From Nitrospirota bacterium (GTDB lineage Bacteria > Nitrospirota > Thermodesulfovibrionia > Thermodesulfovibrionales > UBA9159): a stretch of DNA of 64,000 nucleotides. The stretch is from assembly GCA_037441365.1 (NCBI GenBank), contig JBBISG010000003.1:14624-78623 (forward strand), written 5' to 3'. Made by a program: the position numbers and the translations under genes. Each line of letters starts with the position of its first letter. The first letter of the stretch is position 1. The notes beneath the pieces were generated by a model. The model searched no databases and was not told the DNA's origin. It worked only from the letters and a program-made list of their open reading frames with translations. Below, piece after piece: positions 6,052 through 30,438 of the stretch.

Positions 6052-6129
6052 AGGAAGTGAGGGAGTTTCTTATTTAGTTCCTATTTAACTATTTGTTTGT
6101 TAATTGACAAACCAAGGGAGGAGGATGAG

Positions 6130-6912: not shown

Positions 6913-6922
6913 TGGAGAGGGG

Positions 6923-7753
6923 ATGCTTAAGTTTTTTACAATGGTTGTTTCCCTGGCATTATTCATCACCCCTCAGTCTTTCGCCAGGACGCAGTTCACA
7001 AAATCCGACTTCAACCCGGCGGTTATGAAGATCAAGGAGGACGACTATCTCGGCAAGACGGCGCCAGATATAAAGATGCTCGATGATACAGGCAGGGCAT
7101 TGACCCTCGGCAGCCTTACAAGCAGGCCCTTAATACTGCTGCTCATCTATTACAACTGCCCTAACATATGCCCCCTTCTTGGCGAGGGATTGGCGAATTC
7201 CCTCAATTATATTGGCGATCTCAAATTGGGCACTGATTACAATGTCCTTGTGCTCAGTTTTGATAGGGGTGACACCCCAGAGAAGGCAGCGGAGTTTCAT
7301 AGAAAACTCCAGAGGCAGGTAGGGCTGCAGGACATAGACAGGTGGGTCTTTGCAACCGCTGCGGAAGATGATATCAAGACCCTCACCGAGGCAGTGGGGT
7401 ATCGCTTCTTCTATTCGTCTGAGGATAACATGTTTGTCCATCCCAGTGTCTATATCTTTCTCTCTCCAGGCAGAAAGATAACGAGGTATATCTTCGGGAT
7501 AAAACCAGACCCATTCAGCATCAGGCTGGCGATCCTCGAATCAGTCAGGGGCGTTATAGGAAAGGTTCCGATATCGAGCTTAGCCACACTTGCCTGTTAC
7601 AGGTATGACGCTGAAAGCAGAGGGTATGTCTTGAATCTGCCATTTCTATTTGCATCGGTAGGGGTCGTCATGGCAGTCATGACGGCTATTTTGACTATTG
7701 TTGTTTACAGGAAAAGGAAGTGCTTAAAAACGGATCAAGGAGGTAAGATATGA
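6923..7753 (+). CDS. SCO1/SenC copper chaperone, membrane anchored
   Basis: 276 aa; signal/anchor; CxxxC motif YYNCPNICP; C-terminal TM. Confidence 0.8.
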   Translation: MLKFFTMVVSLALFITPQSFARTQFTKSDFNPAVMKIKEDDYLGKTAPDIKMLDDTGRALTLGSLTSRPLILLLIYYNCPNICPLLGEGLANSLNYIGDLKLGTDYNVLVLSFDRGDTPEKAAEFHRKLQRQVGLQDIDRWVFATAAEDDIKTLTEAVGYRFFYSSEDNMFVHPSVYIFLSPGRKITRYIFGIKPDPFSIRLAILESVRGVIGKVPISSLATLACYRYDAESRGYVLNLPFLFASVGVVMAVMTAILTIVVYRKRKCLKTDQGGKI

Positions 7754-8727
7754 AAAAGGGTTTCTGGATTCTTGTTTCTGTGGTATTGCTCTTCTGCCTG
7801 TTTTCTCTTGCTATTGCTGGAGATAGAGCGGTCGATCCTGCTAAAAGCTGGGACAACCACTACAATCTATATTTCATACTTGTTGCAGGCATCTGGCTTT
7901 TAGTGACCGTTCTCCTCGTATACTTCAGCCTCAGATACAGGAGGAAAAAGGGGCAGGGAGACGGCGCCTACATCCCGGGTAATACCCTTCTTGAGATAAT
8001 CTGGACGGTAGTGCCGCTCATTATAGTTACCCTTCTTGGTGTCCAGACATGGGCGGTGTATAAAGAATACCGGCATGTTCCGAAGGATGCCTATGAGGTC
8101 AATGTTGAGGGGTTCATGTGGGGATGGAATGTGACATATCCTGAAGGGATCAAGACTATCAATGAATTGAGGGTTCCTGCTGGCAGACCCGTAAAAGTCA
8201 ATCTCACAAGTAAAGATGTTCTTCACGCCTTTTTTATACCGGAATATCGTGTGCAGGAAGAGGCTATCCCTGAAAGGACAACCTTCTTCTGGTTCAAACC
8301 TTCAAGGGCCGGGGAATATAGGGCATACTGCACAGAATTCTGCGGCAATGGCCATTCCCTCATGCTCGCGAAGGTTGTAGCAATGGAAAAAGACGGCTTT
8401 GATGCGTGGGTCGCCCAGCAAAAAGGCGCTGTGGCGAAGCTTTTACCTGTAGATAGAGGGAAGAAGCTTGTAGAGGACCTCGGTTGCCTTGGCTGTCACA
8501 CACTCACAGGCGAGAAGTCAGCAGGCCCGTCATTGAAAGGTGTGTATGGAAGGGAGACTATGCTTGCTGACGGCAGAAAGGTTGTGGCGGATGATGAATA
8601 TATAGAACATGCGCTGGAGACACCCAATAGAGATGTTGTTAAGGGGTATACCCCGACAATGCCGCCCTATAAATTGCCCATTGAAGATGAGCATGCAATA
8701 GTTGAATATCTAAAGACCTTAAAATAA
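7750..8727 (+). CDS. cytochrome c oxidase subunit II with C-terminal cytochrome c domain
   Basis: CuA motif HAFFIPE...CTEFCGNGHSLM; heme-c CLGCH; 2 N-terminal TMs. Confidence 0.9.
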   Translation: MKKGFWILVSVVLLFCLFSLAIAGDRAVDPAKSWDNHYNLYFILVAGIWLLVTVLLVYFSLRYRRKKGQGDGAYIPGNTLLEIIWTVVPLIIVTLLGVQTWAVYKEYRHVPKDAYEVNVEGFMWGWNVTYPEGIKTINELRVPAGRPVKVNLTSKDVLHAFFIPEYRVQEEAIPERTTFFWFKPSRAGEYRAYCTEFCGNGHSLMLAKVVAMEKDGFDAWVAQQKGAVAKLLPVDRGKKLVEDLGCLGCHTLTGEKSAGPSLKGVYGRETMLADGRKVVADDEYIEHALETPNRDVVKGYTPTMPPYKLPIEDEHAIVEYLKTLK

Positions 8728-8746
8728 AAAGGAGGAGGTAATATCA

Positions 8747-10360
8747 ATGAATCAGGAAACAGTTAAGGGGTCAGGGTTAAAGGGATGGATATTCACCACT
8801 GACCATAAGAGGATTGCGGTTTTATACCTCATTACGAGCCTGGTTGTCTTTACCCTCGGGCTTCTCCTCGCCCTTGTTATGAAGGCCGAGCAGTGGTCAC
8901 CTGGCAAAGACATCATAGACGCAAAGCTCTACAATGTCTTTTTCACAATCCACGGTGCAGGGATGATACTCTGGTGGATGATACCTGTCTATACAGGCTT
9001 TTTTGCAAATCTCCTTGTGCCATTGATGATAGGGGCAAGGGATGTGGCATTTCCGAGGCTTAATGCCCTGAGTTTCTGGTTCTTTGCAGGGGCAACTGTC
9101 ATGGCTGTTTTAGCCCTTGTTACCCCAGGGCGTCTCGATATTGGATGGACGGGCTATCCACCATACTCTATAAAGTCGGATGCAAACACATCCCTCTATG
9201 TCTTTGCTGTCCATCTCCTCGGTGCCTCAGCGCTCGCATCGGCGGTAAATTTTTTAACCACCATCATCACAATGAGGGCGCCAGGTATGACATGGGGGAG
9301 GCTCAACCTTGCTGTATGGGGAATCCTTGGCGCCTTTATCATCCAGCTCTTCGGGATCCCTGTCCTTGCAGGGGCGGTGACACTGCTTCTGTTTGATAAA
9401 TATCTCGGCACAAACTTTTACAACGCTGCCATGGGCGGCTCGTCCATGCTTTATCAGCATCTGTTCTGGTTCTATGCCCATCCTGCCGTCTATGTTATAG
9501 CACTTCCTGCCTTTGGTATCGTATCTGAAATAATCTCCACCTTTTCGAGGAAAAAGATATACGGGTACACAAGCATGGTAATAGCCATAATGGCAATAAC
9601 ATTCCTCGGTTTTGATGTCTGGATTCACCATCTCTTTACAAAAGGTGTTGAGGATTGGGCCAGGATTGTCCAGTCATTACTGACAATACTTATAGGCGTG
9701 CCTACAGGCATAAAGGTCTTCAACTGGCTTGCAACGATGCATAAGGGTTCGATAGAGTTCAAGGCCCCGATGCTCTATGCCGTAGGCTTTATAACGCTGT
9801 TTGTGATCGGAGGGGCGACAGGTATCGCGAATGGCCTTCTGGCGATAGACCTCCATGTGCATGACACACTCTGGGTTGTAGCCCATTTCCATAATGTCCT
9901 TTCAATGGCCATGACCCTCGTTGCATTTGCAGGTATATATTTCTGGTACCCGAAGTTTACAGGCCGCATGTACAGCGAAGGGCTTGCGAAGGTAGCCTTC
10001 TGGATAATCCTCGTGGGCTCGCTGCTTGCATTCGTTCCATTTTATAAACTCGGTCTCCTCGGAATGCCAAGGAGGTACTGGAGCTACCCTGCTGAGTTTA
10101 CGGACACCTACAGGTTAACTGTAATAGGCGGCTATATACTCGTGCTCGGCTTTTTGCTGACACTGGTAAATATAATTCGTTCTGCCTTTGCAGGCGAGAA
10201 GGCTGCTGCAAATCCATGGGGAGCAAAATCCCTCGAATGGACGCTGCCATCCCCTGTGCCTGTATATAACTTTGAGAAGATTCCTGTTATAACAGCAGGC
10301 CCATACGAATATGGAAGGCCTGAGGAGAAGGCCGTCCCTGAGGGCGCCCAGGCTGTTTAA
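8747..10360 (+). CDS. cytochrome c oxidase subunit I (A-type)
   Basis: 537 aa; FFTIHG, WFYAHPAVY, WIHHLFT, VAHFHNV heme/CuB ligand motifs. Confidence 0.95.
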   Translation: MNQETVKGSGLKGWIFTTDHKRIAVLYLITSLVVFTLGLLLALVMKAEQWSPGKDIIDAKLYNVFFTIHGAGMILWWMIPVYTGFFANLLVPLMIGARDVAFPRLNALSFWFFAGATVMAVLALVTPGRLDIGWTGYPPYSIKSDANTSLYVFAVHLLGASALASAVNFLTTIITMRAPGMTWGRLNLAVWGILGAFIIQLFGIPVLAGAVTLLLFDKYLGTNFYNAAMGGSSMLYQHLFWFYAHPAVYVIALPAFGIVSEIISTFSRKKIYGYTSMVIAIMAITFLGFDVWIHHLFTKGVEDWARIVQSLLTILIGVPTGIKVFNWLATMHKGSIEFKAPMLYAVGFITLFVIGGATGIANGLLAIDLHVHDTLWVVAHFHNVLSMAMTLVAFAGIYFWYPKFTGRMYSEGLAKVAFWIILVGSLLAFVPFYKLGLLGMPRRYWSYPAEFTDTYRLTVIGGYILVLGFLLTLVNIIRSAFAGEKAAANPWGAKSLEWTLPSPVPVYNFEKIPVITAGPYEYGRPEEKAVPEGAQAV

Positions 10361-11211
10361 TGCGATTTATAGAGTATATTAAGTTAACATCCCCTGGTAT
10401 AACCCTGTTAGTGGCACTGACAGGCTTTACAGGGATGTGGATTGCCTCCAGAGGAACGGCTGAACCCTTGCTGTTCCTCTGGTGCCTTTTAGGGATTGCC
10501 CTGTCCTCTGCAGGGTCTTCTGTTTTTAACAATTACTATGACAGAGATATTGACCGGTTAATGAAGAGGACATCTAAAAGACCTCTCCCATCAGGGAAGG
10601 TAAATCCGGCAGGTGCGTTTATATTCGGAATCTCTCTCTCTTTAGCGTCCTTCCTGGTTTTAAACTTTTTTGTAAATACTCTATCCGCTGTTTTAGCAGC
10701 ACTTGCCATATTGGTGTATGCCTTCCTTTATACGGTGATACTTAAGAGAAAAACACCCCATGCAACTGAGATAGGTGGGATATCAGGCGCACTTCCTCCT
10801 GTTATTGGATGGGTAGCGGTTAAAGGCAGTGTCGGCATAGAGGCCCTGCTGCTCTTTGCGATAATGTTCCTCTGGCAGCCCCCACACTTCTGGTCACTCG
10901 CATCGAGGTATAGAGAGGATTATAAAAATGCTGGCATTCCAACCATGCCTCTGATAGTCTCTGAAGATGAAACAAACATGCGCTCACTTATATATATTGC
11001 CTCATTGCTTGTGGTGAGTTTTTTGCCTTACCTTACTGGAATGTTTGGTAAGCTTTACCTCTCTGTATCCCTGACCCTCGGAATTATTTATCTTTTGCTT
11101 TATCTCGTGACTCTTTTCTCAAAAAGGGATTTGAACAGGTCCCTCTTTTTTTATTCCATTATATACCTTTCATTGATTTTTTTATGCATGGTCATCGACA
11201 TTCAGGGGTAA
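10360..11211 (+). CDS. ctaB: protoheme IX farnesyltransferase (heme O synthase)
   Basis: 283 aa UbiA-family; NNYYDRDIDRLMKRTSKRPLPSG motif. Confidence 0.9.
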   Translation: MRFIEYIKLTSPGITLLVALTGFTGMWIASRGTAEPLLFLWCLLGIALSSAGSSVFNNYYDRDIDRLMKRTSKRPLPSGKVNPAGAFIFGISLSLASFLVLNFFVNTLSAVLAALAILVYAFLYTVILKRKTPHATEIGGISGALPPVIGWVAVKGSVGIEALLLFAIMFLWQPPHFWSLASRYREDYKNAGIPTMPLIVSEDETNMRSLIYIASLLVVSFLPYLTGMFGKLYLSVSLTLGIIYLLLYLVTLFSKRDLNRSLFFYSIIYLSLIFLCMVIDIQG

Positions 11212-11258
11212 TTCTCTGGAATTCTTTCATATTCTTATAATGGAAAGGATGGATAGAA

Positions 11259-12035
11259 ATGGCAACAGTACTCTTTGATAATGGTGTTCATAAATGTATC
11301 GTCTTTGATGATATTTTAAGCGGAGATGTTAGAGGGACGGACATCCAGGCAAACCAGTTCCTTATAATACACAATGGTGAAGGATTACTGTATGACCCTG
11401 GGGGGAGTAAGGTTTTTGATCCCCTTTATAAAAGGGTTTCAGAATTTATTAAACCTTCGAGGATAAAGACCATCGTGCTTTCCCATCAGGACCCTGACAC
11501 AGGGGCTGCTATAAACTGGTGGATGCTGTTTTCAGCATCTAAGGTCTTTGTGCCGAGTCTCTGGATAAGGTTTATACCACATTTTACCAGATTAGACGTT
11601 GAAGCGGGTTACTATGTCCCCATACCTGAACAGGGGATGCGATATGATTTTCATGGCTCAGAGATAATTATGCTGCCAGCACATTTTCTACATTCCCCTG
11701 GTAATGTCCAGCTTTATGATACAGCCTCGAAGATACTCTTTTCGGGCGACCTGGGGACATCTATTGTTCCCGATGCAAAGTGGTTTACAGAGGTGATAGA
11801 TTTTGAAGAGCATGTGAGATATATGGAAGGCTTTCACAAGAGATATATAGCCTCTCAGAAGGCGTGCAGGCTATGGGCTAATATGGTGAGGAGATTGGAT
11901 ATTGAGGCAATAGTTCCCCAGCATGGACATAGATACTTTAAGGGTAAAGCTATGGTCAACAGATTTATTGACTGGATAAGTGATCTACAGTGTGGCGTGG
12001 ACTTACTCGATGGGGAAAACTACAAAATTCCATAG
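11259..12035 (+). CDS. MBL-fold metallo-protein (variant HQDPD motif; diiron/ODP-like possible)
   Basis: 258 aa; LSHQDPDTGAAINWW in place of HxHxDH; later His/Asp ligand contexts HFLHSPG, FSGDLG, PQHG. Confidence 0.65.
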   Translation: MATVLFDNGVHKCIVFDDILSGDVRGTDIQANQFLIIHNGEGLLYDPGGSKVFDPLYKRVSEFIKPSRIKTIVLSHQDPDTGAAINWWMLFSASKVFVPSLWIRFIPHFTRLDVEAGYYVPIPEQGMRYDFHGSEIIMLPAHFLHSPGNVQLYDTASKILFSGDLGTSIVPDAKWFTEVIDFEEHVRYMEGFHKRYIASQKACRLWANMVRRLDIEAIVPQHGHRYFKGKAMVNRFIDWISDLQCGVDLLDGENYKIP

Positions 12036-12122
12036 TATCCATAATGAATCTACCGCAGCAATGACAAACCTACAACCTGTCATTCCTTCGCTATGTTCAG
12101 GACGGCGGCTGAATCCTTCGAG

Positions 12123-12156
12123 GGATATAGGTCCTATAGGACTTATAAGACCTCTA
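12123..12156. repeat. REP-like element copy 3
   Basis: GGATATAGGTCCTATAGGACTTATAAGACCTCTA; translated spuriously as EGYRSYRTYKTSK in the track ORF 12093. Confidence 0.8.
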
Positions 12157-12161
12157 AAATT

Positions 12162-13541
12162 ATGAGTCTACTCAAAGGGAAAGAGATGGCTTCTGATATT
12201 CTTTTTCCAATCCCAGATCGGGAGTCACGCCGCCTTGCTGCCGGCTGGCTGATACTCAGCATAGCATCCCTTGTCGCTGCCGGATTATTTTCGATAGTCC
12301 TTGTGCTGTCGCGAACACCCTATGTGCAGAACATCTTCCCATGGGTGGATTTTTTTCATTCAGCCCTGGTTGTGCATGTGGACCTTTCGATCCTGATATG
12401 GTTTCTCTGCTTTGGAGGTGTGTTGTGGAGTATAAACTCTCTCCCGAGGTGGTCGGGTCTGGGCTGGCTGTCCCTTTTCCTTTCAGCTTCAGGAGGTTTA
12501 ATAATAGCTATTTCGCCATTTCTCGGAGCAGGTCGCCCTCTCATGAACAACTACGTGCCTGTCCTTCAGGACCCTATGTTTTTTGCCGGACTTGCAGTAT
12601 TTGCAGTAGGAATCCTCCTGATGCTGGCGCGAAGTTTAGCAGCTCATACCCCTCTGGGGAGTCTGATGGATATTGCGAGTGGATTAAGATTCGGGATTTA
12701 TGCCTCGTCGATGACTGCATCTATCGGAGCGGTTGCGATTGTCTGGTCGTATCTGACTATCCCCGATGCCATTCAGGGCACGGTGTATTATGAGGTTCTC
12801 TTCTGGGGAGGGGGGCATATCCTTCAGTTTGTATATCTCATACTCATGCTTGTTGCATGGCTGTGGTTGGCCTATGTTTCTGGTATACCCTTTCGCATGA
12901 GTCCACTGATAGTTATCCTTCTATTTGGGCTCCTCCTTGCGGTGGTTCTTCTTACCCCGGTGATTTATCTATCCTTTGATACAGGCTCATTTGGGCATCG
13001 GCAGTCATTCACCCTGTTGATGAAATACGGCATGGGGCTGCCGCCACTCTTGATCGGCATGGTTTTGCTGAAGGGGATTTTGCAGAGAAAGGCCACTGAA
13101 AATATGCGCCATATCCGTGCAGCCCTTACCACCTCTATGGTGCTTTTTGGATCTGGTGGGGTTATCGGTTTCTTAATCAATGGCATTAATGTCACTATAC
13201 CATCCCATTATCATGGCGCTATTGTAGGAGTGACCCTGTCATTCATGGGATTGACTTACTATCTATTGCCCCATCTCGGTTTCCGCAATCCCACACCCCG
13301 CCTCTCCATCATCCAGCCCTATATTTATGGTATTGGCCAGCTTTTGCACATCCTCGGCCTCGCCTGGGCAGGCGGCTATGGTGTCCAGCGCAAGGTGGCA
13401 GGCAGCGCTCAGGGCCTGGATAGCTTCAAGAAGATGTTGAGCATGGGGATCATGGGCATTGGTGGATTTATAGCCGTTATCGGAGGCTTCCTGTTTTTAG
13501 TGGTGGTTATTCATGCCTTGTGGCCTACCCGTGAACAGTGA
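12162..13541 (+). CDS. heme-copper-oxidase-subunit-I-like 12-TM membrane protein (divergent)
   Basis: start moved to ATG 12162 (alt 12186) past the REP copy; LFWGGGHILQF and GGVIGF...IPSHYHGAIVG parallel helix VI and X motifs of the coxI in this window. Confidence 0.5.
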   Translation: MSLLKGKEMASDILFPIPDRESRRLAAGWLILSIASLVAAGLFSIVLVLSRTPYVQNIFPWVDFFHSALVVHVDLSILIWFLCFGGVLWSINSLPRWSGLGWLSLFLSASGGLIIAISPFLGAGRPLMNNYVPVLQDPMFFAGLAVFAVGILLMLARSLAAHTPLGSLMDIASGLRFGIYASSMTASIGAVAIVWSYLTIPDAIQGTVYYEVLFWGGGHILQFVYLILMLVAWLWLAYVSGIPFRMSPLIVILLFGLLLAVVLLTPVIYLSFDTGSFGHRQSFTLLMKYGMGLPPLLIGMVLLKGILQRKATENMRHIRAALTTSMVLFGSGGVIGFLINGINVTIPSHYHGAIVGVTLSFMGLTYYLLPHLGFRNPTPRLSIIQPYIYGIGQLLHILGLAWAGGYGVQRKVAGSAQGLDSFKKMLSMGIMGIGGFIAVIGGFLFLVVVIHALWPTREQ

Positions 13542-13661
13542 GCAATATTTTCCTATTTCCTATTTCCCAGCTTCATCAATGCGGTAGTGCGATAGTCTGA
13601 CTGTCACTCAGCTGCCCCTCAGTATTCAATTTTGAATTATAAAGTTACCTAAAATTATAAC

Positions 13662-13691
13662 TTGACAATTTTAAGAATTCAGGATTAAAAT
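13662..13691 (+). promoter_or_regulatory. sigma-70-like promoter (TTGACA-18 nt-TAAAAT)
   Basis: read directly upstream of the 13870 operon. Confidence 0.4.
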
Positions 13692-13744
13692 AATCTTGAT
13701 TATGATTTACCGAAAAAACCGAGAAATGCTTTTTATGGTCAAAA

Positions 13745-13767
13745 AGGACGGTTTCCGTCCTGTTTTT
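13745..13767 (+). terminator. intrinsic-terminator-like hairpin in the 5' leader (AGGACGG-ttt-CCGTCCT + GTTTTT)
   Basis: 7-bp GC-rich stem, 3-nt loop, T-run; sits between the promoter at 13662 and the ATG at 13870. Confidence 0.4.
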
Positions 13768-13869
13768 AAATACCAAGAGGAGGGTTTAAGATGGCAGAAG
13801 AAGCAGTAGGTATGAATGGAAACCTGTAAAGGGTTTCGCTCATTAAAAACTAAAAAGGAGGAAATTGAT

Positions 13870-15207
13870 ATGTATCCTATCTGGGAAGTGCCAAATTTAA
13901 GTGCGGGGATTATACTGGCACTGATTGCAGCATTTCATATCCTGCCCTCACATCTCTCGACAAGTGCCATGTGGTTTAATGTCTTTGTAGAGACAAAGGC
14001 ATACAGGGAAAACAGGCCTGAATATCTTGAATTCATTAAAAAATACACTCTGCTTTTGCTTGTATTCGCCTATGTCCTCGGTTCCTTGAGCGGAATTGGC
14101 ATCTGGTATTCTGCCACTGTGGCAAACCCGAGGGGTATTTCAGGTCTGATCCACAACTATGTCTGGGGATGGGCAACAGAATGGGTCTTTTTCATAATCG
14201 AGGTGACAGGGATATTCATCTATTACTATACCCTCGGCAAGGTGGATAGAAAGACCCATCTGAAGATCGGCTGGATATTTGCCATTGGCTCATGGACGAC
14301 CATGGTAATTATTGTCGGCATTTTAGCCTTTATGCTTTCGCCAGGCAAATGGCCTGAGACAGGAAATTTCTTTGACGGCTTCTTCAACCAGACATACTGG
14401 TCTCAGCTTTTGATGAGGACTACATTGATGTTTGGCATTGCAGCAGCCTATGCCATTGCAGTGGCAACGAGGATAAAAAATGCGGATGTGAGGTCATTCA
14501 TTACGAAGACAGCATCAAAGTGGGGAGTAGCAGGTTTAATACTCGGCTGTGTTTTGTTCTTATGGTACCTGAAGACCCTTCCTGATGCAAACCGTATGTT
14601 GATTACAGCGCTTGTGCCGCAGGGACTTAAGACAGGGATAATTGTTTCGTTAGGGTTGTTGGTTCTCTATTTCATCTATGCAAATGTAAAACCTCTCGGC
14701 ATCAGACTTTTTCCTGCTATTCTGGCAATCGCTGTGCTTTTTGGAGGCATCTGGTCAACCGAGAGAATCAGGGAAATGATAAGGAAGCCATATATCATTC
14801 CTCAATATATGTATTCCAACCAGATAATAGGAAAGGACATTCCAGCAAAGGGTGTAAGCGCTGAGGCAAAAATTATAAACGAAAAGGGGATACTCAAGGT
14901 TGCACCCTTTGTGCCTGATGGTTTAAGGGAGATAAACGAAGGCAATCAGGTGCAGGCAGGAAAGATGATAGCCCTGATTGAATGCTCATCCTGTCATGTC
15001 CTAAATGAAAAGGGTTTAAGGGCAATGCCGCAGATGGTGAGGAGGCTTGAGTTTAAACCCCATGCAGAGGCTGCTGATGAGATCAAAGAGGTTGAGGGCT
15101 TTATTGATGCGCTTGGTGGATACCCTTATATGCCGCCTTTTGTTGGTTCAGTAGCAGAGAAAAAGGCATTAGCAACATATCTGCATTCAATTTCACGCAT
15201 CAAATAA
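13870..15207 (+). CDS. cytochrome bd subunit-I-like membrane domain fused to a C-terminal mono-heme cytochrome c
   Basis: ATG 13870 has an AAAGGAGGA SD; N-terminal helices recall CydA (AFHILPSHLS, ATEWVFFIIEVTG); C-terminal CSSCH with downstream Met. Confidence 0.5.
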   Translation: MYPIWEVPNLSAGIILALIAAFHILPSHLSTSAMWFNVFVETKAYRENRPEYLEFIKKYTLLLLVFAYVLGSLSGIGIWYSATVANPRGISGLIHNYVWGWATEWVFFIIEVTGIFIYYYTLGKVDRKTHLKIGWIFAIGSWTTMVIIVGILAFMLSPGKWPETGNFFDGFFNQTYWSQLLMRTTLMFGIAAAYAIAVATRIKNADVRSFITKTASKWGVAGLILGCVLFLWYLKTLPDANRMLITALVPQGLKTGIIVSLGLLVLYFIYANVKPLGIRLFPAILAIAVLFGGIWSTERIREMIRKPYIIPQYMYSNQIIGKDIPAKGVSAEAKIINEKGILKVAPFVPDGLREINEGNQVQAGKMIALIECSSCHVLNEKGLRAMPQMVRRLEFKPHAEAADEIKEVEGFIDALGGYPYMPPFVGSVAEKKALATYLHSISRIK

Positions 15208-15217
15208 GGAGGATAAC

Positions 15218-16429
15218 ATGGAAATAAATACAATGTTAAAGGCCTTGCAGGATCCGATGGGGGTACCATTTTATCCGGTTGTGTTTCAGGTTTTGATGGT
15301 GCTCACTTTTGCACTTCATATAATGTTCGTGAATTTTACCCTCGGGACATCATTCTTATCCGTATATGGATATCTAAAGGGAGGAGAAAACTGGGGAAGG
15401 CTTTCTAGATCACTTGCGAAGGCAACCACAGCCAATATCTCCATGGCAATGCTTTTAGGGGTAGCGCCGCTTCTCTTTGTTCAGGTTGTGTATGACCCGT
15501 TCTGGTATGCATCCAATACCCTTTCTGCCGCATGGGTTATAGGTTTTATATTCATAATGATGCTCGGCTACAGCCTGACATATGTCTTCTACCTGAAGAG
15601 GGATTCAAGGGGAGGAGGCTTTGCTATATTCGGGGTTATAGCCTTAGCCCTCTTTCTGCTTTCAGGCATCATCATGCATGCCCTCGGGTATCAACTGCTT
15701 CAACCTGAAAAGTGGCTTCAATGGTATGTGAGGGGAAATTCTGTTGATACATCCGGGACATCCCTACATGCCTTCCAGCTTCCGAGGTTTCTGCATTTCA
15801 TTATCCCGTCCTTTGCCATGACAGGCATATTCCTGATGCTTTATGCATGGTATTTCAAAAACAGGACAGATTCCGATAAAGGCTATCTTGAATGGGTTGG
15901 CAGAACCGGCGCAAAGATGGCATTCACTTTTACAGCCATACAGGCCATTGTCGGCTTCTGGTGGTTGTTCAGTCTGCCTGGTGAGTTCAATTTCTTCACA
16001 AGCCCGTTCTTTCTAATAGGCGCAGCGCTTGGAATCGCATTGCTGTTTTTTCTCTATAATGCGCAGAAGGATCCCGTTAAATACGCAGTGCCGGGCATAC
16101 TGGGGGCTTTCCTGACAATCCTTGGAATGTCCTATGCGAGGGAAGCTTTGAGGATGAAATATCTCAGCCGCTTTGATTATTCCATCTTTAACTACAAGCT
16201 GAATATTGACTGGGGCAGCACAGCCTTATTCCTAACAACATTTGTGATGGGCCTGTCCATCATAGGCTATCTTATATCCGTTGCATATAAGTCCGGCAGG
16301 GTCGCGGGTGAATTTACTGCCACGCCTTCCATGAACAAATGGGGAAGGATCAGCATTGCCTTGCTTTTGGCCTGGATAGTTGTGGTGGCAGGGTTGGGGG
16401 TTATAATATCTCTCAAAAACTACTTATGA
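15218..16429 (+). CDS. polytopic membrane protein, operon partner of the bd-like subunit (function unknown)
   Basis: 403 aa, about 9-10 hydrophobic helices; AAGGAGGA SD; 10-nt gap from the upstream gene. Confidence 0.5.
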   Translation: MEINTMLKALQDPMGVPFYPVVFQVLMVLTFALHIMFVNFTLGTSFLSVYGYLKGGENWGRLSRSLAKATTANISMAMLLGVAPLLFVQVVYDPFWYASNTLSAAWVIGFIFIMMLGYSLTYVFYLKRDSRGGGFAIFGVIALALFLLSGIIMHALGYQLLQPEKWLQWYVRGNSVDTSGTSLHAFQLPRFLHFIIPSFAMTGIFLMLYAWYFKNRTDSDKGYLEWVGRTGAKMAFTFTAIQAIVGFWWLFSLPGEFNFFTSPFFLIGAALGIALLFFLYNAQKDPVKYAVPGILGAFLTILGMSYAREALRMKYLSRFDYSIFNYKLNIDWGSTALFLTTFVMGLSIIGYLISVAYKSGRVAGEFTATPSMNKWGRISIALLLAWIVVVAGLGVIISLKNYL

Positions 16430-17201: not shown

Positions 17202-17627
17202 TTAATGGCTCATAAAGAACCTGTCGAGAATACCCCTTAGCATCCTTGCGTGTCTTGCCTCATCTCTCGATGACTCATCAAAGAAGTCATGGGCAGGATC
17301 ACAGTTGCACTCCCTTGCCTTTTTTGCAGCCTCTTTCTTGCCCTTATTTGCGCCGATCTCTCCCTGAAGCATCTTCTCAAGGTTTTCCTTTGTGCTCTTC
17401 GAGATGAGGCCATTCATTTCTGCGAACTGGGCTGCATGTTCTGCCTCTTCCCATGCAATTGTCTTTAGCGTCTCGGCCACCTCTGGATAGCCGTCCCTTT
17501 GTGCCTGCCTTGCCATTGCAAGGTAGAGACCCACCTCTGTGCATTCCCCCTTAAAGTTTCCCATTACAGCATCCTCTACCTCGGTGCCTTTTGCTACGCC
17601 AATTTCATGTTCATTGATAAGCTCCAT
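17202..17627 (-). CDS. rubrerythrin-like diiron (ferritin-like) protein lacking the rubredoxin domain
   Basis: 141 aa; ExxH motifs EEAEHAAQF and DEARHARML. Confidence 0.85.
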
Positions 17628-17772: not shown

Positions 17773-18384
17773 CTATTTCAGTGCCTCATATACCTTTCCA
17801 ACCAGCTTTGCGGATGGTTTAAGTGTCCTGTCACCTTCATCCTTCCATTTTGATGGGCAGCCTTCATCCGTATGTTTTGCAAGATGGAGATTAGCCTTAA
17901 ACTTTCTCATTAATTCATCAATATTTCTGCCCATATTGTAGTAGTTTACCTCTGAATTAAGGAGTTTCCCCTCAGGGCTGATTATAAATGTCCCTCTCAA
18001 TGCAAGGCCTGTTGCATCATCATATACGCCAAACATCCTTGAGACCTTCCCTGTAGGGTCTGCAGCCATCGGATATTTCACATCGGCGAGCATTTTCTCT
18101 TCCCTCTGCCATGCAAGATGGACAAACTTTGTGTCTGTGCTGACTGTGATGACCTCAGCTCCCATTTTTTTGAATCTCTCATACTGCTCTGCCAGAGCAG
18201 CAAATTCTGTAGCTCAAACAAATGTAAAGTCCGCAGGATAGAAAACAAGTATCGTCCATTTCTTGTTCGCCTTTAGCGTTTCAAGACTGACCTCACCAAA
18301 ATCACCCTTTGACGGCTCGAAGGTCTCGAGCTTAAAATCCGGGACCATCTGTCCCACCATTAAACCACAGCAATTCTCACTCAT
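17773..18384 (-). CDS. 2-Cys peroxiredoxin with selenocysteine (UGA codon 57) at the peroxidatic position
   Basis: ATG 18384 with AAGGAGGT SD; MSENCCGLMVGQMVPDFKLETFEPSKGDFGEVSLETLKANKKWTILVFYPADFTFV-TGA(18216..18214)-ATEFAALAEQYERFKK then the 130-aa track ORF in the same frame; resolving-Cys motif EGCPSKW. Confidence 0.75.
18182..18202 (-). other. candidate bacterial SECIS hairpin (UGCUGCUCU-GGC-AGAGCAGUA)
   Basis: 9-bp stem starting 11 nt 3' of the UGA. Confidence 0.5.
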
Positions 18385-18412
18385 TTTTAATACCTCCTTA
18401 CTTTATTTTTCC

Positions 18413-18517
18413 CTACTGTTTCTGCATCATGCCCTTTTCTCCGCATTTGGGGCACTTCTGAGGTTTGCACCTCCCTTCAACCTTTGCACCGCACTTGCTG
18501 CATTTAAATACTGCCAT
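18413..18517 (-). CDS. 34-aa rubredoxin-knuckle mini-protein (CxxCG ... CPxCG), below the track cutoff
   Basis: MAVFKCSKCGAKVEGRCKPQKCPKCGEKGMMQKQ*; GGAGGAGGTG SD; ATG directly follows the Fur-family stop codon. Confidence 0.5.
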   Translation of the reverse strand: MAVFKCSKCGAKVEGRCKPQKCPKCGEKGMMQKQ

Positions 18518-18934
18518 TTATATCACCTCCTCCTTTTGCTCATGGTTCTGGCAATCAGGGCATATTCCATAAAACTCGATATGGTTGCCGATTATCTTGA
18601 ATCCGCCCTGTGATTCCTTTTTAACAGTAACTGAGAATTTATTGTGAATATCCATGATCTTCCTGCATCTGATACAGATCAGGTGGTGATGTGGTTCGGT
18701 GTTAGGGTCGAATCTCTTTTTATCAGGGTCTATTGTGAGTTCGATTATGTTTCCCCTTTTCCTCAGCGCATCAAGGGTGTTATAGACAGTTGCAAAGGAC
18801 ATGGTAGGGAATCTCTTTGATACCTTCCTGTAAATCTCTTCTGCAGAGGGATGATTCTTGTTACCATCAAGGTAATCAAGAATCGCCAGCCTCTGCGGTG
18901 TTAGTTTGAACCCTATGTTTTTATATTTTTCCAT
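18518..18934 (-). CDS. Fur family regulator (PerR-like by context)
   Basis: 138 aa; wHTH; HHHLICIRCRKIMD and CPDC zinc motifs. Confidence 0.9.
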   Translation of the reverse strand: MEKYKNIGFKLTPQRLAILDYLDGNKNHPSAEEIYRKVSKRFPTMSFATVYNTLDALRKRGNIIELTIDPDKKRFDPNTEPHHHLICIRCRKIMDIHNKFSVTVKKESQGGFKIIGNHIEFYGICPDCQNHEQKEEVI

Positions 18935-18941
18935 TTTTTCC

Positions 18942-18956
18942 TTAGAATTATTCTTA
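18942..18956. promoter_or_regulatory. Fur/PerR-box-like 7-1-7 inverted repeat TTAGAATtATTCTTA
   Basis: 1 mismatch from a perfect 7-1-7; lies between the predicted minus-strand promoter and the Fur-family ATG. Confidence 0.4.
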
Positions 18957-18964
18957 TTAAGTAT

Positions 18965-18994
18965 TTTATATCATATTAAAATCATTCTTGTCAA
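18965..18994 (-). promoter_or_regulatory. sigma-70-like promoter for the PerR operon (TTGACA-18-TATAAA on the minus strand)
   Basis: read on the reverse complement. Confidence 0.45.
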
Positions 18995-19380: not shown

Positions 19381-20103
19381 ATGGTTGAACTAAGAAAGGC
19401 CCTCTATCTTTTCCCGATCTTAATACTCCTGTCTGCAGTCTCTGCCCCTTCTGAAGACATATACGGAAAAAGGCGTCAGGCCATGCTGGAGCAGGATATA
19501 AAGGCCAGGGGGATAAAGGACGGTAAGGTGATCTGGGTGATGGGGAGGGTGCCGAGACACCTCTTTGTTGATGAGCACCTGAGGGCAAAGGCATATGAGG
19601 ATTATCCCCTTCCAATAGGCGAGGGCCAGACAATATCCCAGCCCTATGTAGTCGCCCTGATGACAGAGGCGCTGAGACTGAGGCCGACTGATAGGGTCTT
19701 AGAGATAGGCGCTGGTTCAGGTTATCAGGCAGCAGTCCTTGCAGAGATTGTAAAAGAGGTCTATACAATAGAGATCAGGAAGGGGCTTGCTGAGAAGGCC
19801 GAGAGAAGACTTAAAGATCTGGGTTACAAAAATGTAAAGGTTAAGTATGGTGATGGATATTTTGGTTGGGAAGAATATGCGCCCTTCGATGCCATAATCA
19901 TAACCGCCTCAGCAAATTACATCCCACCGCCGCTCATAAGGCAGCTAAAGGAAGGCGGCAGGTTGATCATCCCCCTTGGGAGCACTGTATATTACCAGAC
20001 CCTGACACTGGCAACAAAAGAGAGAGGGGAGCTAAATTTAGAGCAGATAGCGCCTGTTGCTTTTGTGCCTATGATTGGAGAGGTCCAGATGAAGGGAAGG
20101 TAA
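19381..20103 (+). CDS. pcm: protein-L-isoaspartate O-methyltransferase
   Basis: [35 protein letters not shown] motif; N-terminal signal-like segment. Confidence 0.9.
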
Positions 20104-22432
20104 AAAATGCCAGCAGATATGTCCCGCTGCCTATCCAGAGAACCGTCTTAAAGCCTACAGCCATTGCGAGCATTATGGCAGCAATTGGCGCCAGTATCGA
20201 GAGGCAGCCATTTATTGCCCACGCCCATGGTATAAGGTCAGGGCATCTCTCTCCGAGGGCCTTCAATCCGGTGGGGAATGGGATCCCCATCAACATGCTA
20301 AGAGGGATGAGGAATGTAAATGTTAACAGAATCTTAAGCGGCAGTGAATATTGTGAGACGGTCCCTGAGAGTGGTGGTATAAGAAGGCTGTAGACAATGA
20401 TCAGGAAAGAGAGGGCGATAAGCATATAGGGGCGCCTCAATCCCGGAAACCTGTGACTCAGCAGACTCCCCATGCCAGAGCCGATGAGTATAGAGGTGAG
20501 GACAGCTGCGGCAGCATAAAATGGAATTTCGAGGGTGAGGATCATTTTCTGGATCAGGGAGACCTCTACAAACATGAATCCGAGGCCGATGGATGCAAAG
20601 TAGAGGAACAGATTCAGATCAAGGTTAAGACCCCTTCCCTTAATTCTGGTCTTAATTGCCATAGCGGGCATAATTGTAAGTGCAATGCTCAGCAAAAGCA
20701 CCTGTATAAATACAGCAGGGAGGAGATAGCCTTCTTCTATGAAGAACTGCCACTTCCGGCCCATCAGGTCGTAGATTTTTTTAAGGTTTTTGAGCCTCAG
20801 GAAATAATGGAAGAAGGGGTTTTCATCGCGCACAGGTCGGATATCGAAGATGTAGCTGCGCTGAAATCTCTGGCGCGTCTCGGGACTGAGTATCTCCTTA
20901 AATGCCATAGGGTATTCGTCTGAAGGCATCTTCACATAAACATTCGTCTCTTCCCTCTTTATCCCCGGCAGATAAACGAGATCGAATCTCCTTTCCTTCG
21001 AGAATCTCCTGATGGCATTGATCTCTTGAGGTTCAAACACGGACCTCTTGGCGAGGATGCATAGCGTCCCCCAGCTCCTGATGGCAGCAATCCTTTTCTC
21101 TACATCCTCTATGCCCATCTCTTCCATCGATTGGGCGATTGTGCTCAGGAGCCTCAATTCTATCCTCGGGGGCGGAAGAATAAAGAGGTTTATGCTAAGG
21201 ATACCGTTATTATTTAGATGTCTCAGATATTCTTTGAATGCCTCCACAGTAAACCTGTAGTCCTCGGCTATCCCGAATGAGCTTGATGGCGAGGCCCCGA
21301 TCAATGGCATATCTATAATGTCGAATCTCCTGTCATTCCTTTTCAGCCATGACCTGCCCATGCCCGACCATGTTTTTTCTTTATAAATGCCCCCCGAGAA
21401 GTCATCGAGCGCATCCCTGATGACCTTTATTACATAGGGATTGGAGTCCACCTTATGGATGTTTTCTGAACCGCTCATTATGGCCAGCAGGACCTCCAGC
21501 CCTCCCCTCGGCTCGACGATCAAGACATTATCCCTTCTGCCTATTTCGTAAGGAAGCGATGATGGCAGATATTTGAGAAATCCGAGGGATTCCTTCTTTT
21601 CTGCATTTGTGATGCTGTTTATATCACCTCCATCGATGGAAATCCCTATCTGCTCAGGAAGCCCTTCAAGGTATTTGAGGCTTAACCCGGGCGCAAATCT
21701 CGCAGCAGGGCTTTTAAATATATCTATGCGCGAAAATGGGGTGTTATAGGTCTTTATACGTTCTGCATCAGGATATCTCAGGGCGAGCTGGAGTCCTTTG
21801 TATGGCGACATCCTCGGCTCAAGGACGGGCATGGAGATGATAAACAGGTTTAATAAGATGAGGGATGCAGATGCAATCCCTGTCTTCAATCCGCCGGTAA
21901 TTAACGAGCCTGTTAATGCTATGGATGAAATGATTATGACTGCCTTTTCAGGACCGACGACGCTCAGGAAAAACAGAAGAAAGATAGAACCTGCACCAGC
22001 GCCGAGAAGGTCAGACCCATAGAGGATTCCAGCCCTCTCGCTTGTTGTTGAAAAGGCGGTTGAGATGCATAATCCGAAGAAGAAGAAGGGTACGGCGAGG
22101 ACCATATAGTAGAGGCTGATATAGATTAGCTGTATCCTGTCCCAGGAAAGCCTGACAGGATCGAATGGTATCTGGTTCGATATGATATAGCTCAGGGAGA
22201 TGCCTGCACCTAAAAACACTCCGTAGAGACCGATCCTCGAAGGCGCTTTAAGCCCCGGGTACAGGGAGAGTGCTGTGCCGCTTGCAGCGATGCCGAGCAT
22301 GGCTATGCTTATCACCATGAAGGCAAAGTGATACCAGAGGGAGATCGAAAAGAGCCTTGTTAGAATTATCTCATATGAAAGGGCAGAGAATGAGAAGAAG
22401 AATATCCCCGTATATAATCGTGCCTTGGCCAC
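20069..22432 (-). CDS. polytopic membrane protein with central spermidine-synthase-like domain
   Basis: 787 aa; N- and C-terminal multi-TM blocks flanking [15 protein letters not shown]...KVDSNPYV Rossmann-type segment; 35-nt convergent overlap with pcm. Confidence 0.7.
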
Positions 22433-24795: not shown

Positions 24796-25362
24796 ATGAA
24801 GGAGATATTTATAGACATCGAGAGGTGCACTGCCTGTAAATCCTGCGAGATTGCCTGTTCTGTGCAACATTCAAAATCAAAGGACCTTTTTACTGCTATC
24901 TCTGAATTCCCACCACCGATAAGAAGGATACATGTGGAAAAGGCCCTCTCTTATTCTTATCCCTCAAAGTGTATGCATTGCGCAGAGGCACCGTGCATGA
25001 TGGCCTGTCCTGTTGGGGCAATATACAGGGATACCGATCTGGGCAGCGTCCATGTCAATAAAGACAGATGCATGGGATGCTGGATGTGCGCCATGGTCTG
25101 CCCCTTCGGGGCGATCACTGCAGACCCTTATATGAAGGTTGCGAGGAAGTGTGATTTCTGCAGGAAAAGGGTAAAGGAGGGCAAGAAGCCTGCGTGTGTG
25201 GAGGCGTGCCCGACCCATGCCCTCAGTTACGGCGAGGTAGATGACCTTTCCAAGGCACAGAGGTTGTCCGCTGCAGAGCGTGTTGCAAGGGCAGTGAGTG
25301 CGGCAGGGGAAGAAAGGAAGATAACACCGTTAAAGATGTTGAGAGATATGGGAGGTGTGTGA
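24796..25362 (+). CDS. cooF: CooF-like 4Fe-4S ferredoxin-type iron-sulfur protein
   Basis: 188 aa with 4 CxxCxxCxxxCP-type clusters; overlaps cooS start. Confidence 0.85.
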   Translation: MKEIFIDIERCTACKSCEIACSVQHSKSKDLFTAISEFPPPIRRIHVEKALSYSYPSKCMHCAEAPCMMACPVGAIYRDTDLGSVHVNKDRCMGCWMCAMVCPFGAITADPYMKVARKCDFCRKRVKEGKKPACVEACPTHALSYGEVDDLSKAQRLSAAERVARAVSAAGEERKITPLKMLRDMGGV

Positions 25363-27263
25363 TGGCGATAAAGACCTTTGACAGGGCCACTCAGGTCTTG
25401 ATAGACAGGGCAGAGGCGTTGGGGATAGAGACAGGGATTCACAGGCTTGAATCCCAACAACCCCAGTGCGGATTCGGTCAGCTTGGAACATGCTGCCGCA
25501 TGTGTTATATGGGGCCATGCAGAATAGATCCCTTTGGAGAAGGGGCTACAATGGGGGTCTGCGGTGCATCGGCTGATACAATTGTCTGCAGAAACCTCTT
25601 GAGGGAAGAGGTGGGAGGCGCATCATCCCATGTGGGGCATGCAAGGCATGTTGTGCTTGCCTTCAAGAAGATGCTCAATGGGGAGGCCCCAGGATATAGA
25701 ATCTCTGACAGGGATAAATTGATGGAGGTGGCCAGGGGGCTTGGAATAGAGATCGATGGGAAATCCGATATGGAGATTGCGGGTGATGTTGCGGACAAGG
25801 CGCTGGAGGATTTATCGAGACAGAACGGAGAGCCCATGAACTGGCTCAGATTGAGAGCGCCTAAGAGGGAATTCGAGATGTGGAGGGCACTCGGTCTCCT
25901 CGTCTCCAACGCGCACAATGAGATCGAGGAGGCGATGCACAGGACATCAATGGGCAATGATGCCGATCCTGTAAATCTCCTTTTTGCCTGTCTGAAGATC
26001 GGCCTTGTGGATGGCTATGCGGGGCTGCATTTGGCTACAGATTTTCAGGATATCATGTTCGGCACACCACGTGTGAGGACTGTTGATGCGAATATGGCTG
26101 TTCTTGAGAAGGATAAGGTTAATATTGCCATACACGGCCATAATCCTGTCCTTTCAGAAAAGGTCCTTGAATTTGCCTCTAAGCTTGAAGATGAGGCACG
26201 GCAGGCTGGTGCGCAGGGCATAAATGTGGTTGGTGTTTGCTGCACAGGCAACGAGCTGACCATGAGACACGGGGTCCCTATGGCAGCTCATAATCTCCAG
26301 TCCGAAATAATACTGCTTACAGGTGCGGTCGATGCAATGGTTGTAGATATGCAGTGCATATGGCCATCCACAACAAAGATATCAGAGTGTTTCCATACCA
26401 AGGTCATTACAACAGAACCCTTTGTAAAGATACCAGGCGCGAGCCATGTTAGTTTTGAGCCCGAACATGCCGATGAAGAGGCAGAGAAGATCGTGAGGAT
26501 GGCTATAGATGCCTATAGGGCGAGGAAGGGTGAAGATGTTGTTATCCCAAAAGAGAAGTCTGTGGGATTTGCAGGCTTCTCTATAGAGGCGATTCTGGAT
26601 GTGCTTGGCAAGATAGACCCCTCAGATCCGCTGAAACCCGTTGTTGATAATATCGTAAATGGAAACATCTATGGCGCTGTGGGATTTGCGGGCTGTCCGA
26701 GTATAAAGCTCAGGGATACATCCATGACAGAGAGGATGGCGAGAGAACTTTTGAAAAATAATGTGCTAATAGTCACCACAGGGTGCACAGCCCATATCTG
26801 TGCCCAGGCAGGGCTGATGGATTCCTCTGCCACTGATAAATACTGCGGTGAGGGACTAAAGGCTGTGCTTCATGTCATAGGAAAGGCTGCGGGCCTTGAT
26901 GTGCCACTGCCTCCTGTATGGCATATGGGTGCCTGTGTGGACAATTCGAGAATTGCTTCACTTCTCGGTGCGCTGGCGGAAAGGCTTGGTGTGAAGATCA
27001 GCCAGCTTCCTGTGGCTGGCTCGGCCCCTGAGCTTGTCCAGGAAAAGGCGATATCGATAGGGACATGGCTCCTTGCCCTTGGACTTCTCGTCCATGTTGC
27101 GCCGAGTCCAAGGATTCTGGGCAGCCCTGTTGCTACAAAGGTGTTGACGCAGGAACTTGAAGGTATTACCGGCGGTAAGGCATATGTAGAGCTCGACCCC
27201 GAGAAGGCAGTAGAAGGGATAATGGCTCATATTGGACAGAAGAGGAAGGCACTGGGGATTTAG
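25359..27263 (+). CDS. cooS: anaerobic Ni-Fe carbon monoxide dehydrogenase catalytic subunit
   Basis: 634 aa; N-terminal CGFGQLGTCCRMCYMGPCRI cluster B/D motif; GVCCTGNE; GCTAH. Confidence 0.9.
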   Translation: MMAIKTFDRATQVLIDRAEALGIETGIHRLESQQPQCGFGQLGTCCRMCYMGPCRIDPFGEGATMGVCGASADTIVCRNLLREEVGGASSHVGHARHVVLAFKKMLNGEAPGYRISDRDKLMEVARGLGIEIDGKSDMEIAGDVADKALEDLSRQNGEPMNWLRLRAPKREFEMWRALGLLVSNAHNEIEEAMHRTSMGNDADPVNLLFACLKIGLVDGYAGLHLATDFQDIMFGTPRVRTVDANMAVLEKDKVNIAIHGHNPVLSEKVLEFASKLEDEARQAGAQGINVVGVCCTGNELTMRHGVPMAAHNLQSEIILLTGAVDAMVVDMQCIWPSTTKISECFHTKVITTEPFVKIPGASHVSFEPEHADEEAEKIVRMAIDAYRARKGEDVVIPKEKSVGFAGFSIEAILDVLGKIDPSDPLKPVVDNIVNGNIYGAVGFAGCPSIKLRDTSMTERMARELLKNNVLIVTTGCTAHICAQAGLMDSSATDKYCGEGLKAVLHVIGKAAGLDVPLPPVWHMGACVDNSRIASLLGALAERLGVKISQLPVAGSAPELVQEKAISIGTWLLALGLLVHVAPSPRILGSPVATKVLTQELEGITGGKAYVELDPEKAVEGIMAHIGQKRKALGI

Positions 27264-29396: not shown

Positions 29397-29753
29397 ATGG
29401 CAAAGAGATTTACATTGTTCCTGTCCACATCGCCTTATTCTTACGAGAACACGCTGACCACCATAAGGATCGCTGAGTCTGCTTTGAACAAAGGACATGT
29501 GGTGAATCTAATTGCATCAGGCGATGGGGTGTATTGTTTTTTGAAAGGTCAAAAGGCAAAGGGGGTACCTAATGCCGAAGAGAGATTCTCTGAACTTATC
29601 CAAAAGGGTTTAAGGGTCTATCTCTGAGGAGGCTGCATGAACTTTCGCCGTGCAGCGAAGGAAGACTATATTGACGGTGCAGAGGTGGGTTCTCTCAAGG
29701 GCCTCTTCAGGACCATGGGTGAGACGGATGTGTGGCTGAATATCGGTGTGTAA
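29397..29753 (+). CDS. DsrE/TusD-like sulfur-relay subunit with selenocysteine (UGA codon 77) at the active-site Cys position
   Basis: AAGGAGGT SD; 76-aa track ORF ...KGLRVYL-TGA(29625..29627)-GGCMNFRRAAKEDYIDGAEVGSLKGLFRTMGETDVWLNIGV-TAA; total 118 aa, normal DsrE length. Confidence 0.7.
29632..29656 (+). other. candidate bacterial SECIS hairpin (GCUGCAU-11 nt-GUGCAGC)
   Basis: 7-bp stem (one G-U) starting 5 nt 3' of the UGA. Confidence 0.4.
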
Positions 29754-30411: not shown

Positions 30412-30438
30412 CACACACTCTGTATGAGGGGGGTAGCG

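Follow-up and report, generated by a model that had tools for sequence, protein, structure and literature searches.

The locus at 17773..18384 on the minus strand of this Nitrospirota sequence raises the question of whether a TGA codon, placed where a peroxiredoxin gene (hereafter prx) should encode its catalytic residue, ends translation or is read as selenocysteine (Sec). In the window, by which we mean the whole 64-kb stretch of DNA that was analyzed, a mechanical ORF list cuts the prx frame in two, into a 56-aa ORF (18214..18384) and a 130-aa ORF (17773..18165). The latter had been noted in the original prediction as a partial peroxiredoxin, and the ORF list contains it together with the 56-aa ORF.

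The reading frame and the predicted protein

Direct reading of the minus strand gave a complete frame of 203 codons from an ATG at 18384..18382 to a TAG at 17775..17773, in which codon 57 (18216..18214) is the only in-frame TGA. The TGA is preceded by 56 sense codons, the last ones being ...ILVFYPADFTFV, and followed by 146 more, ATEFAALAEQYERFKKMGAEV...EGCPSKW...YEALK. A Shine-Dalgarno sequence (AAGGAGGT, 18399..18392, minus strand) was read 7 nt 5' of the ATG. The start codon with its ribosome-binding site, the position of the TGA and the 203-aa length had all been proposed beforehand, and coordinates and translation match them exactly.

Profile and structure comparisons were run with Cys in place of the TGA. 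The 203-aa product matched the Pfam AhpC-TSA domain (PF00578) with an E-value of 1.6e-38 and 131.8 bits, against a cutoff of 26, and as the match covers residues 10-141 the domain spans the TGA. Solved AhpC structures among the PDB chains matched over the full length at about 1e-47 (best 9.6e-48). These structure alignments place the TGA at the peroxidatic Cys (CP; FYPADFTFV-C-PTE) and Cys176, within EGCPSKW, at the resolving Cys (CR; EVCPAKW of AhpC), in agreement with the proposal that the TGA replaces the peroxidatic Cys and that the context of the resolving Cys is kept. The accompanying motif claim was right in placing the TGA at the Cys position and wrong in taking FTFVCPTE as universal, for this clade has FTFV[C/U]ATE and not the commoner FVCPTE.

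The PxxxTxxU motif is present as P50-A-D-F-T54-F-V-U57, and the Prx active site is completed by Pro50, Thr54 and Arg130 (LALRGTFI). Cys176 is kept in 75/76 Sec-type genes and the Arg located at +73 from the site (R130) in 74/76. As CP, CR, Pro50, Thr54 and Arg130 are all aligned, the gene product is a predicted typical 2-Cys peroxiredoxin of the AhpC/Prx1 subfamily. The score reached with the AhpC equivalog model TIGR03137 was 206 bits, under its cutoff of 272, and that with the PrxU equivalog model NF040737 was 188.3 bits, under its cutoff of 270. Judged by these scores, the protein belongs to a separate peroxiredoxin lineage within the AhpC/Prx1 subfamily, being neither a PrxU nor an AhpC equivalog. 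Like AhpC of Salmonella, E. coli and Amphibacillus (PDB 1we0, 1yf1 and 4ma9), it has CP, CR and Arg aligned and the same predicted CP-CR intersubunit chemistry; unlike AhpC, it would carry Sec at CP and it is encoded in a cluster with PerR and rubrerythrin genes, no AhpF-like gene being found with Pfam or NCBIfam among the annotated ORFs of the 64-kb window.

Conservation of the TGA and of the hairpin that follows it

The relatives analyzed were 80 loci from species-representative genomes with 69-96% protein identity, of which 79 had an identifiable site. The codon at this site was TGA in 75/79 and TGT or TGC in 4/79. TGA carriers were found in the Thermodesulfovibrionales/Nitrospirota, Acidobacteriota, NC10/Rokubacteria/Methylomirabilota, Planctomycetota, Gemmatimonadota, Binatia and Desulfobacterota, and tblastn alignments cross the TGA in a single frame. 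Between codons -44 and +120, zero further stops were detected across 74 TGA-bearing genes, the window included, and in these genes the entropies by codon position were 0.57/0.47/1.43 upstream and 0.52/0.27/1.36 downstream of the TGA. Both halves of prx thus show coding-type variation and are stop-free, so a pseudogene or a truly split gene is excluded.

A SECIS-like hairpin lies inside the CDS at 18182..18202 (minus strand), covering codons +4 to +11. A 9-bp hairpin in this place, beginning 11 nt after the UGA, had been claimed from the letters, and the predicted fold agrees, having UGCUGCUCU-GGC-AGAGCAGUA as its core. The conserved element GCTGCTCTGGCAGAGCAG comprises 18 nt, begins 12 nt 3' of the UGA and contains the GGC loop. 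The consensus of 24 diverse loci consists likewise of an 8-bp stem (18201..18194 with 18190..18183 in the window) and a GGC apical loop (18193..18191), 12 nt past the UGA; the window's hairpin has a ninth pair, U-A, beyond this conserved stem. RNA folding, which the original prediction had put forward as a check, gave a dG of -12.1 kcal/mol for the hairpin, compared to -5.1 +/- 1.8 for 5000 synonymous recodings that kept the peptide and followed the codon usage of this genome, only 25/5000 of which reached -12.1. Dinucleotide shuffling of a 76-nt segment gave no significant result (z = -0.74) and was set aside as a null, being unsuited to short hairpins within coding sequence.

Synonymous sites carry a trace of this element as well. 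Counting the window, there are 76 TGA genes, and in these third-position entropy is 0-0.2 bits at codons +5 to +10 (GCT GCT CTG GCA GAG CAG) and 1.5-1.9 bits at flanking four-fold codons whose amino acids are equally conserved; GCT, which is among the rarer Ala codons of the genome, occurs twice in the hairpin. Variation of the stem in the 24 loci was limited to a G-U to G-C change at the basal pair and rare single mismatches, and no compensatory substitutions were detected in it. As the stem is invariant, support for the structure comes from conservation and energy and not from covariation. The dG of the hairpin averaged -12.3 kcal/mol in 80 Sec-type genes and ranged from -2.7 to -6.9 in the Cys-type genes L017, L018, L027, L035, L085 and L092, where the encoded peptide is identical or almost so and the synonymous codons are scrambled; GCAGCCCTTGCAGAACAG is a Cys-type sequence of this kind, with a stem altered by synonymous changes. 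As judged from these codons, the hairpin is under selection only in TGA genes, with two very recent Cys forms as the exception. By itself it is no proof of current Sec decoding, because the close Cys-codon homologs P0001 and P0004 (TGC) have all of its 18 nt identical.

Bacterial SECIS elements have been described as stable stem-loops located just 3' of the UGA, with a guanosine in a small apical loop (PMC1088965). The hairpin fits this description and is a putative SECIS to which SelB would bind. Its loop is GGC (3 nt), and opening of the closing U-A pair would widen it to 5 nt. Like the fdhF/fdnG-type SECIS of E. coli, it is an in-ORF stem-loop right after the UGA and has a small apical loop that contains G; unlike the fdhF SECIS, it has an unrelated sequence and no bulged U in the predicted fold. 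Searches against Rfam, carried out with the whole window at the gathering threshold and with the locus at E<=10, gave no SECIS or other meaningful match, only chance snoRNA-like ones.

Decoding of the UGA

If the TGA were a true stop, prx would be a pseudogene or a split gene derived from a TGC/TGT to TGA nonsense mutation. TGC and TGA indeed differ by one base, gene callers split prx, and the best 120 protein matches in the database carry Cys at the site nearly always (117, with 'W' in 2), including one Cys form at 90% identity. However, this excess of Cys is a sampling artifact, as TGA-bearing genes are stored in the database as fragments, and a nonsense mutation is hard to reconcile with a TGA shared by 75/79 species-level relatives across phyla, with 74 genes that remain in frame in both halves with coding-type substitutions and without any other stop, or with an adjoining hairpin that, two very recent Cys forms excepted, appears to be selected only together with the TGA. 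The best 120 proteins are also single chains of 189-220 aa in 120/120 cases, with the N-terminal part joined to the C-terminal part, so that the separation of the first 56 aa that would have spoken for two genes was not found. Termination at codon 57 is hardly credible on this evidence. The chance that the TGA arose from a sequencing or assembly error in the window is negligible: besides its occurrence in 75 other genomes, the same TGA was found in 3/3 contigs assembled from separate runs (SRR17771277, SRR11582146 and SRR11582170) with 99-99.97% nucleotide identity, which are likewise called as 56-aa and 130-aa ORFs. The original prediction had named an error, a true stop, a split gene and a pseudogene as outcomes to look for, and these results speak against each of them.

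The two proteins with W at the site could be taken as a sign that UGA is reassigned genome-wide to Trp or Gly, as in genetic codes 4/25, with no involvement of Sec. Against this, one of these 'W' proteins, P0103 (locus L084), was checked and its codon is TGA followed by the same hairpin, so this W reflects gene calling with code 4 and not a real Trp; homologs without TGA have Cys, never Trp or Gly; and TGA is the terminator at the expected length for 9/33 family-assigned genes of the window, by which genome-wide reassignment is excluded, leaving this reading with practically no weight. A subtler reading is that UGA is recoded by a SECIS/SelB-type route with Cys, always or at low selenium, through a selC* tRNA-Cys, a mimic of tRNA-Sec. 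Such tRNAs occur in Thermodesulfovibrio and in probable Nitrospirae contigs, a deltaproteobacterial selC* tRNA suppresses opal codons with Cys in E. coli (PMC5389517), and Cys works at the site, where natural Cys forms exist. On the other hand, selC*, selB* and cysS* are all absent from the window, the CysS of the window, a fusion with CysE, matches the canonical full-length model, the combination of a UCA-anticodon selC* with cysS* has been reported only for a Desulfobacterales subgroup, and no feature links such a tRNA to this organism. We consider this reading quite improbable.

Selenocysteine at the catalytic site, within a 203-aa selenoprotein peroxiredoxin, is in our estimation the correct reading of the prx UGA with a probability of about 0.93. 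The Sec interpretation draws on the conserved TGA and its alignment with Cys, the selection on the hairpin, the coding character of both halves and the independent assemblies. According to the mechanism that we propose, the UGA at codon 57 would be recoded with the hairpin 12 nt 3' of it (GCUGCUCU-GGC-AGAGCAGU) acting as a bacterial SECIS; SelB.GTP.Sec-tRNASec would bind the hairpin and, competing with RF2, bring Sec to the A site. In the enzyme, Thr54 and Arg130 would activate the selenolate of Sec57 for its attack on the peroxide, and the resulting selenenic acid would condense with Cys176 of the partner subunit to give a selenenylsulfide, which a thioredoxin-like reductant would then reduce.

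Pfam and NCBIfam searches, covering about 55 ORFs, detected no selA, selB or selD in the 64-kb window, in the ~6.5 kb past one of its edges or in the fetched loci, and ARAGORN found no tRNA-Sec in the window or in 45 fetched loci. A 634-aa ORF considered as SelB was rejected, as it is CODH, and a 338-aa ORF considered as SelD was rejected as LpxK. As no selA/B/C/D was found in the window, the assumption of a Sec machinery rests on the literature on this lineage: Mukai et al. report a complete selABCD apparatus in the genomes of their study that carry selC*, Thermodesulfovibrio among them (PMC5389517), and a selB-selC overlap has been described in a Nitrospirae lineage (PMC8124441).

The window was also scanned for other in-frame TGA candidates. 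From 90 raw matches only prx and a DsrE-like gene were credible, the rest being out-of-frame noise or adjacent genes sharing a frame. The predicted DsrE-like selenoprotein (UxxC) belongs to a listed family of predicted selenoproteins, according to the available part of the catalog (PMC13188914). Its gene (29397..29753, plus strand; Pfam DsrE, PF02635, 6.6e-18) contains a TGA at 29625..29627 in the context VYL-U-GGC, and is followed on the same strand by a TusC/DsrF-like gene (29766..30119) and a TusB/DsrH-like gene (30130..30411), assigned from NCBIfam TusC and TusB matches, respectively. The original prediction had pointed to this TGA as a second active-site case. This proposal held up: wherever the site could be identified in metagenomic relatives the codon is TGA (76/76), and a 7-bp hairpin (29642..29661, plus strand) is formed by codons +5 to +10, whose synonymous sites are again frozen. 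By these conservation data the gene passes the test applied to prx and is the putative second selenoprotein gene of the window, which gives indirect support to Sec decoding in this organism.

Relation to known selenoperoxiredoxins and gene context

A Sec-containing peroxiredoxin, PrxU, was reportedly shown in Eubacterium acidaminophilum by Sohling et al. in 2001. The prx product resembles PrxU in its AhpC-TSA fold, in a peroxidatic Sec within TxxU, in coming from a strict anaerobe and in the presumed thioredoxin-dependent reduction of peroxide. Unlike PrxU, which is from Firmicutes, prx belongs to a Nitrospirota; its match to NF040737 begins at model position 36 of 233, its motif is FVUATE, and a short N-terminus rich in Cys (such as CCGL) occurs in many members of its group. 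A 2026 review, in its accessible portion, counts Sec-Prx with PxxxTxxU among the experimentally established families and enters it as Prx, PF00578, TxxU (PMC13188914). The gene shares with the Sec-Prx cataloged there and in an earlier survey, as far as the accessible portions of both extend, the PF00578 domain, the T/SxxU/C motif, a UGA at the Cys position, a SECIS 3' of it and enrichment in anaerobes; the carriers named in those portions are Deltaproteobacteria, Clostridia and Symbiobacterium, Nitrospirota being unnamed there for Prx (PMC1794560, PMC13188914). prx is an unannotated new gene of this established Sec-peroxiredoxin family and not a new kind of selenoprotein, and the known workings of Sec-peroxiredoxin genes are unchanged by the finding.

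In a rough NJ tree, computed without support values, Cys-codon forms appeared in several clusters nested within a Sec backbone. Decay of the hairpin scaled with divergence, as the closest Cys forms, P0001 and P0004, keep all 18 nt and deeper Cys forms have 3-5 mismatches. This pattern suggests repeated Sec-to-Cys conversion with progressive decay of the SECIS. It differs from the picture given in the available part of the 2006 survey of Zhang et al., in which only Cys-to-Sec events were inferred for 12 Sec-Prx genes (PMC1794560), as the Cys forms here look nested in a Sec backbone with decaying hairpins. A bolder scenario can be drawn in which these genes form a distinct Sec-Prx lineage, neither PrxU nor AhpC, that has spread with a nearly invariant SECIS over at least six phyla and has repeatedly reverted to Cys, leaving fossil SECIS elements, and in which selC*-bearing Thermodesulfovibrionia might decode the UGA as Sec or Cys depending on selenium supply. 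We regard this scenario as speculative and improbable; if decoding did follow selenium supply, nature would offer here a conditionally ambiguous codon for a catalytic residue.

As gene callers split prx in every assembly examined, a predicted and probably highly active peroxide-detoxifying selenoenzyme has been missed in Thermodesulfovibrionia and in many uncultured lineages, and its recognition amends what has been inferred about the oxidative-stress repertoire of these anaerobes. With two putative selenoprotein genes within 64 kb, the organism is marked as a selenium user. The related genes also provide a clean natural case of a SECIS seen purely as frozen synonymous sites, and the possible Sec-to-Cys conversions with SECIS decay may interest researchers of selenoprotein evolution. 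That the lineage seems very widespread, with a putative SECIS essentially invariant across phyla, may be of minor specialist interest.

The prx gene of this member of the Thermodesulfovibrionia lies in an oxidative-stress cluster of the PerR type, all on the minus strand. The first gene of the cluster encodes a PerR-like regulator of the Fur family (18518..18934; Pfam FUR, 5.6e-31), whose top NCBIfam match is PerR with 134 bits, under the equivalog cutoff of 180. Between perR and prx, the ORF list contains a 34-aa zinc-ribbon/rubredoxin-like ORF with a CxxC...CxxC pattern (18413..18517); it matches the rubredoxin-like domain of rubrerythrin weakly (PF21349, 8e-5, under the cutoff), and its counterpart is called as a 36-aa gene in one relative (L089). 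On the 3' side of prx follows a gene for a 141-aa rubrerythrin-like diiron protein without a rubredoxin domain (17202..17627; Pfam Rubrerythrin, 7.2e-17). This gene order recurs in the relatives L088-L090 and L005. Upstream of perR, a candidate promoter was read on the minus strand, TTGACA (18994..18989) separated by N18 from TATAAA (18970..18965), for which a consensus promoter scanner made no call. On the 3' side of this candidate promoter lies a 7-1-7 inverted repeat, TAAGAAT-A-ATTCTAA (18956..18942, minus strand), which resembles a Fur/PerR box and may serve as one. Peroxide would probably derepress prx expression through PerR.

Elsewhere the window consists of ordinary chromosomal sequence, with genes for GlnA, a CysE-CysS fusion, Mfd, Dxr, UppS, RseP, GspE/F, an aa3-type oxidase, CODH and LpxK, and a ribosomal protein/SecY/RpoA cluster is found past one of its edges.

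Probable conversion of selenocysteine and the state of the SECIS hairpin

Homologs of the peroxiredoxin (Prx) with cysteine in place of the inferred Sec57 were found both close to and further from the window protein. The closest, from loci L081-L083 (protein P0001) and L091 (P0004), share 87-90% identity with it and carry TGC as the peroxidatic codon, and their genes retain the complete 18-nt sequence of the SECIS hairpin (18182..18202, minus strand, in the window). In the more diverged Cys forms (L017, L018, L027, L035, L085 and L092) the same 18 nt show 3-5 mismatches. In a rough neighbor-joining tree, the Cys-type proteins formed several clusters within a Sec-type backbone. Judging from these sequences, the TGC genes with a whole hairpin look like products of a recent Sec-to-Cys conversion, with the SECIS left behind as a fossil. 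At strain level, the hairpin of the nearly identical contig L089 carries one synonymous G-to-A change (GAG to GAA), which disrupts a C-G pair.

The prx cluster and its variation

A short Cys-rich N-terminal extension was detected in many, not all, members of the Prx lineage (window and L001-L080), unlike AhpC structures, which lack it. In the window it lies within residues 1-12 (18384..18349, minus strand) and reads MSENCCGL; other variants are CCCL and CxCLxC, as in MSEACACLACNV. This region perhaps serves in metal binding or as an additional redox site.

On the same strand, a 141-aa protein consisting only of a diiron domain is encoded downstream of prx (17202..17627), and a 34-aa CxxC...CxxC ORF (MAVFKCSKCGAKVEGRCKPQKCPKCGEKGMMQKQ; 18413..18517) begins immediately past the stop codon of the perR-like gene. 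Rubrerythrin appears to be split between these two ORFs, the smaller of which gave a weak match, below the cutoff (8e-5), to the rubredoxin-like domain of rubrerythrin (PF21349). Directly upstream of the perR start (18942..18994, minus strand) lie a candidate sigma-70 promoter, TTGACA-N18-TATAAA, and, downstream of it, an inverted repeat of 7-1-7 form (TAAGAAT-A-ATTCTAA) that resembles a Fur/PerR box; the perR-prx cluster could be an autoregulated oxidative-stress operon.

Strain-level indels flank prx on both sides, at about 17757 and 18401..18409, among contigs otherwise 99% identical (L088 and L089). At 17757, L088 holds about 1 kb of additional sequence between prx and rubrerythrin, comprising a Lactamase_B/ODP flavodiiron-like gene and a 97-aa ORF, and L089 holds 246 additional nt. 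In both contigs, the small ORF and prx also stand further apart than in the window.

A second selenoprotein gene and other genes of the window

The second selenoprotein gene, DsrE-like (29397..29753, plus strand), has its TGA at 29625..29627 within a U-G-G-C motif, followed by a hairpin at 29642..29661 on the same strand. This TGA is kept in 76/76 metagenomic relatives, among which synonymous sites in the hairpin region are frozen. The gene is the first of a DsrE/DsrF/DsrH-like trio (the others at 29766..30119 and 30130..30411), preceded by two ArsR-family regulator genes and followed by an SQR-like flavoprotein gene (30424..31626).

A 706-aa protein (36353..38473, minus strand) joins serine O-acetyltransferase (CysE, residues 7-168) to a full-length cysteine--tRNA ligase (CysS, 224-701), which is an unusual arrangement. 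CysRS variants have been tied to tRNA-Sec mimics in the literature; the CysS part of this fusion looks canonical.

Two plus-strand regions (6097..16429 and 24796..27263) together encode a heme-copper (aa3-type) oxidase cluster (CoxC, CoxB, CoxA and heme o synthase), additional ORFs of COX1-like and of cytochrome bd-like/cytochrome c type, and a ferredoxin and Prismane/CODH-family gene pair. The lineage is generally considered anaerobic, and oxidase genes alongside a Prx/rubrerythrin cluster fit oxygen defence or microaerobic respiration. Two large conserved ORFs with no Pfam match (20069..22432, minus strand, 787 aa; 15218..16429, plus strand, 403 aa) are present in the independent assemblies L088-L090 as well.
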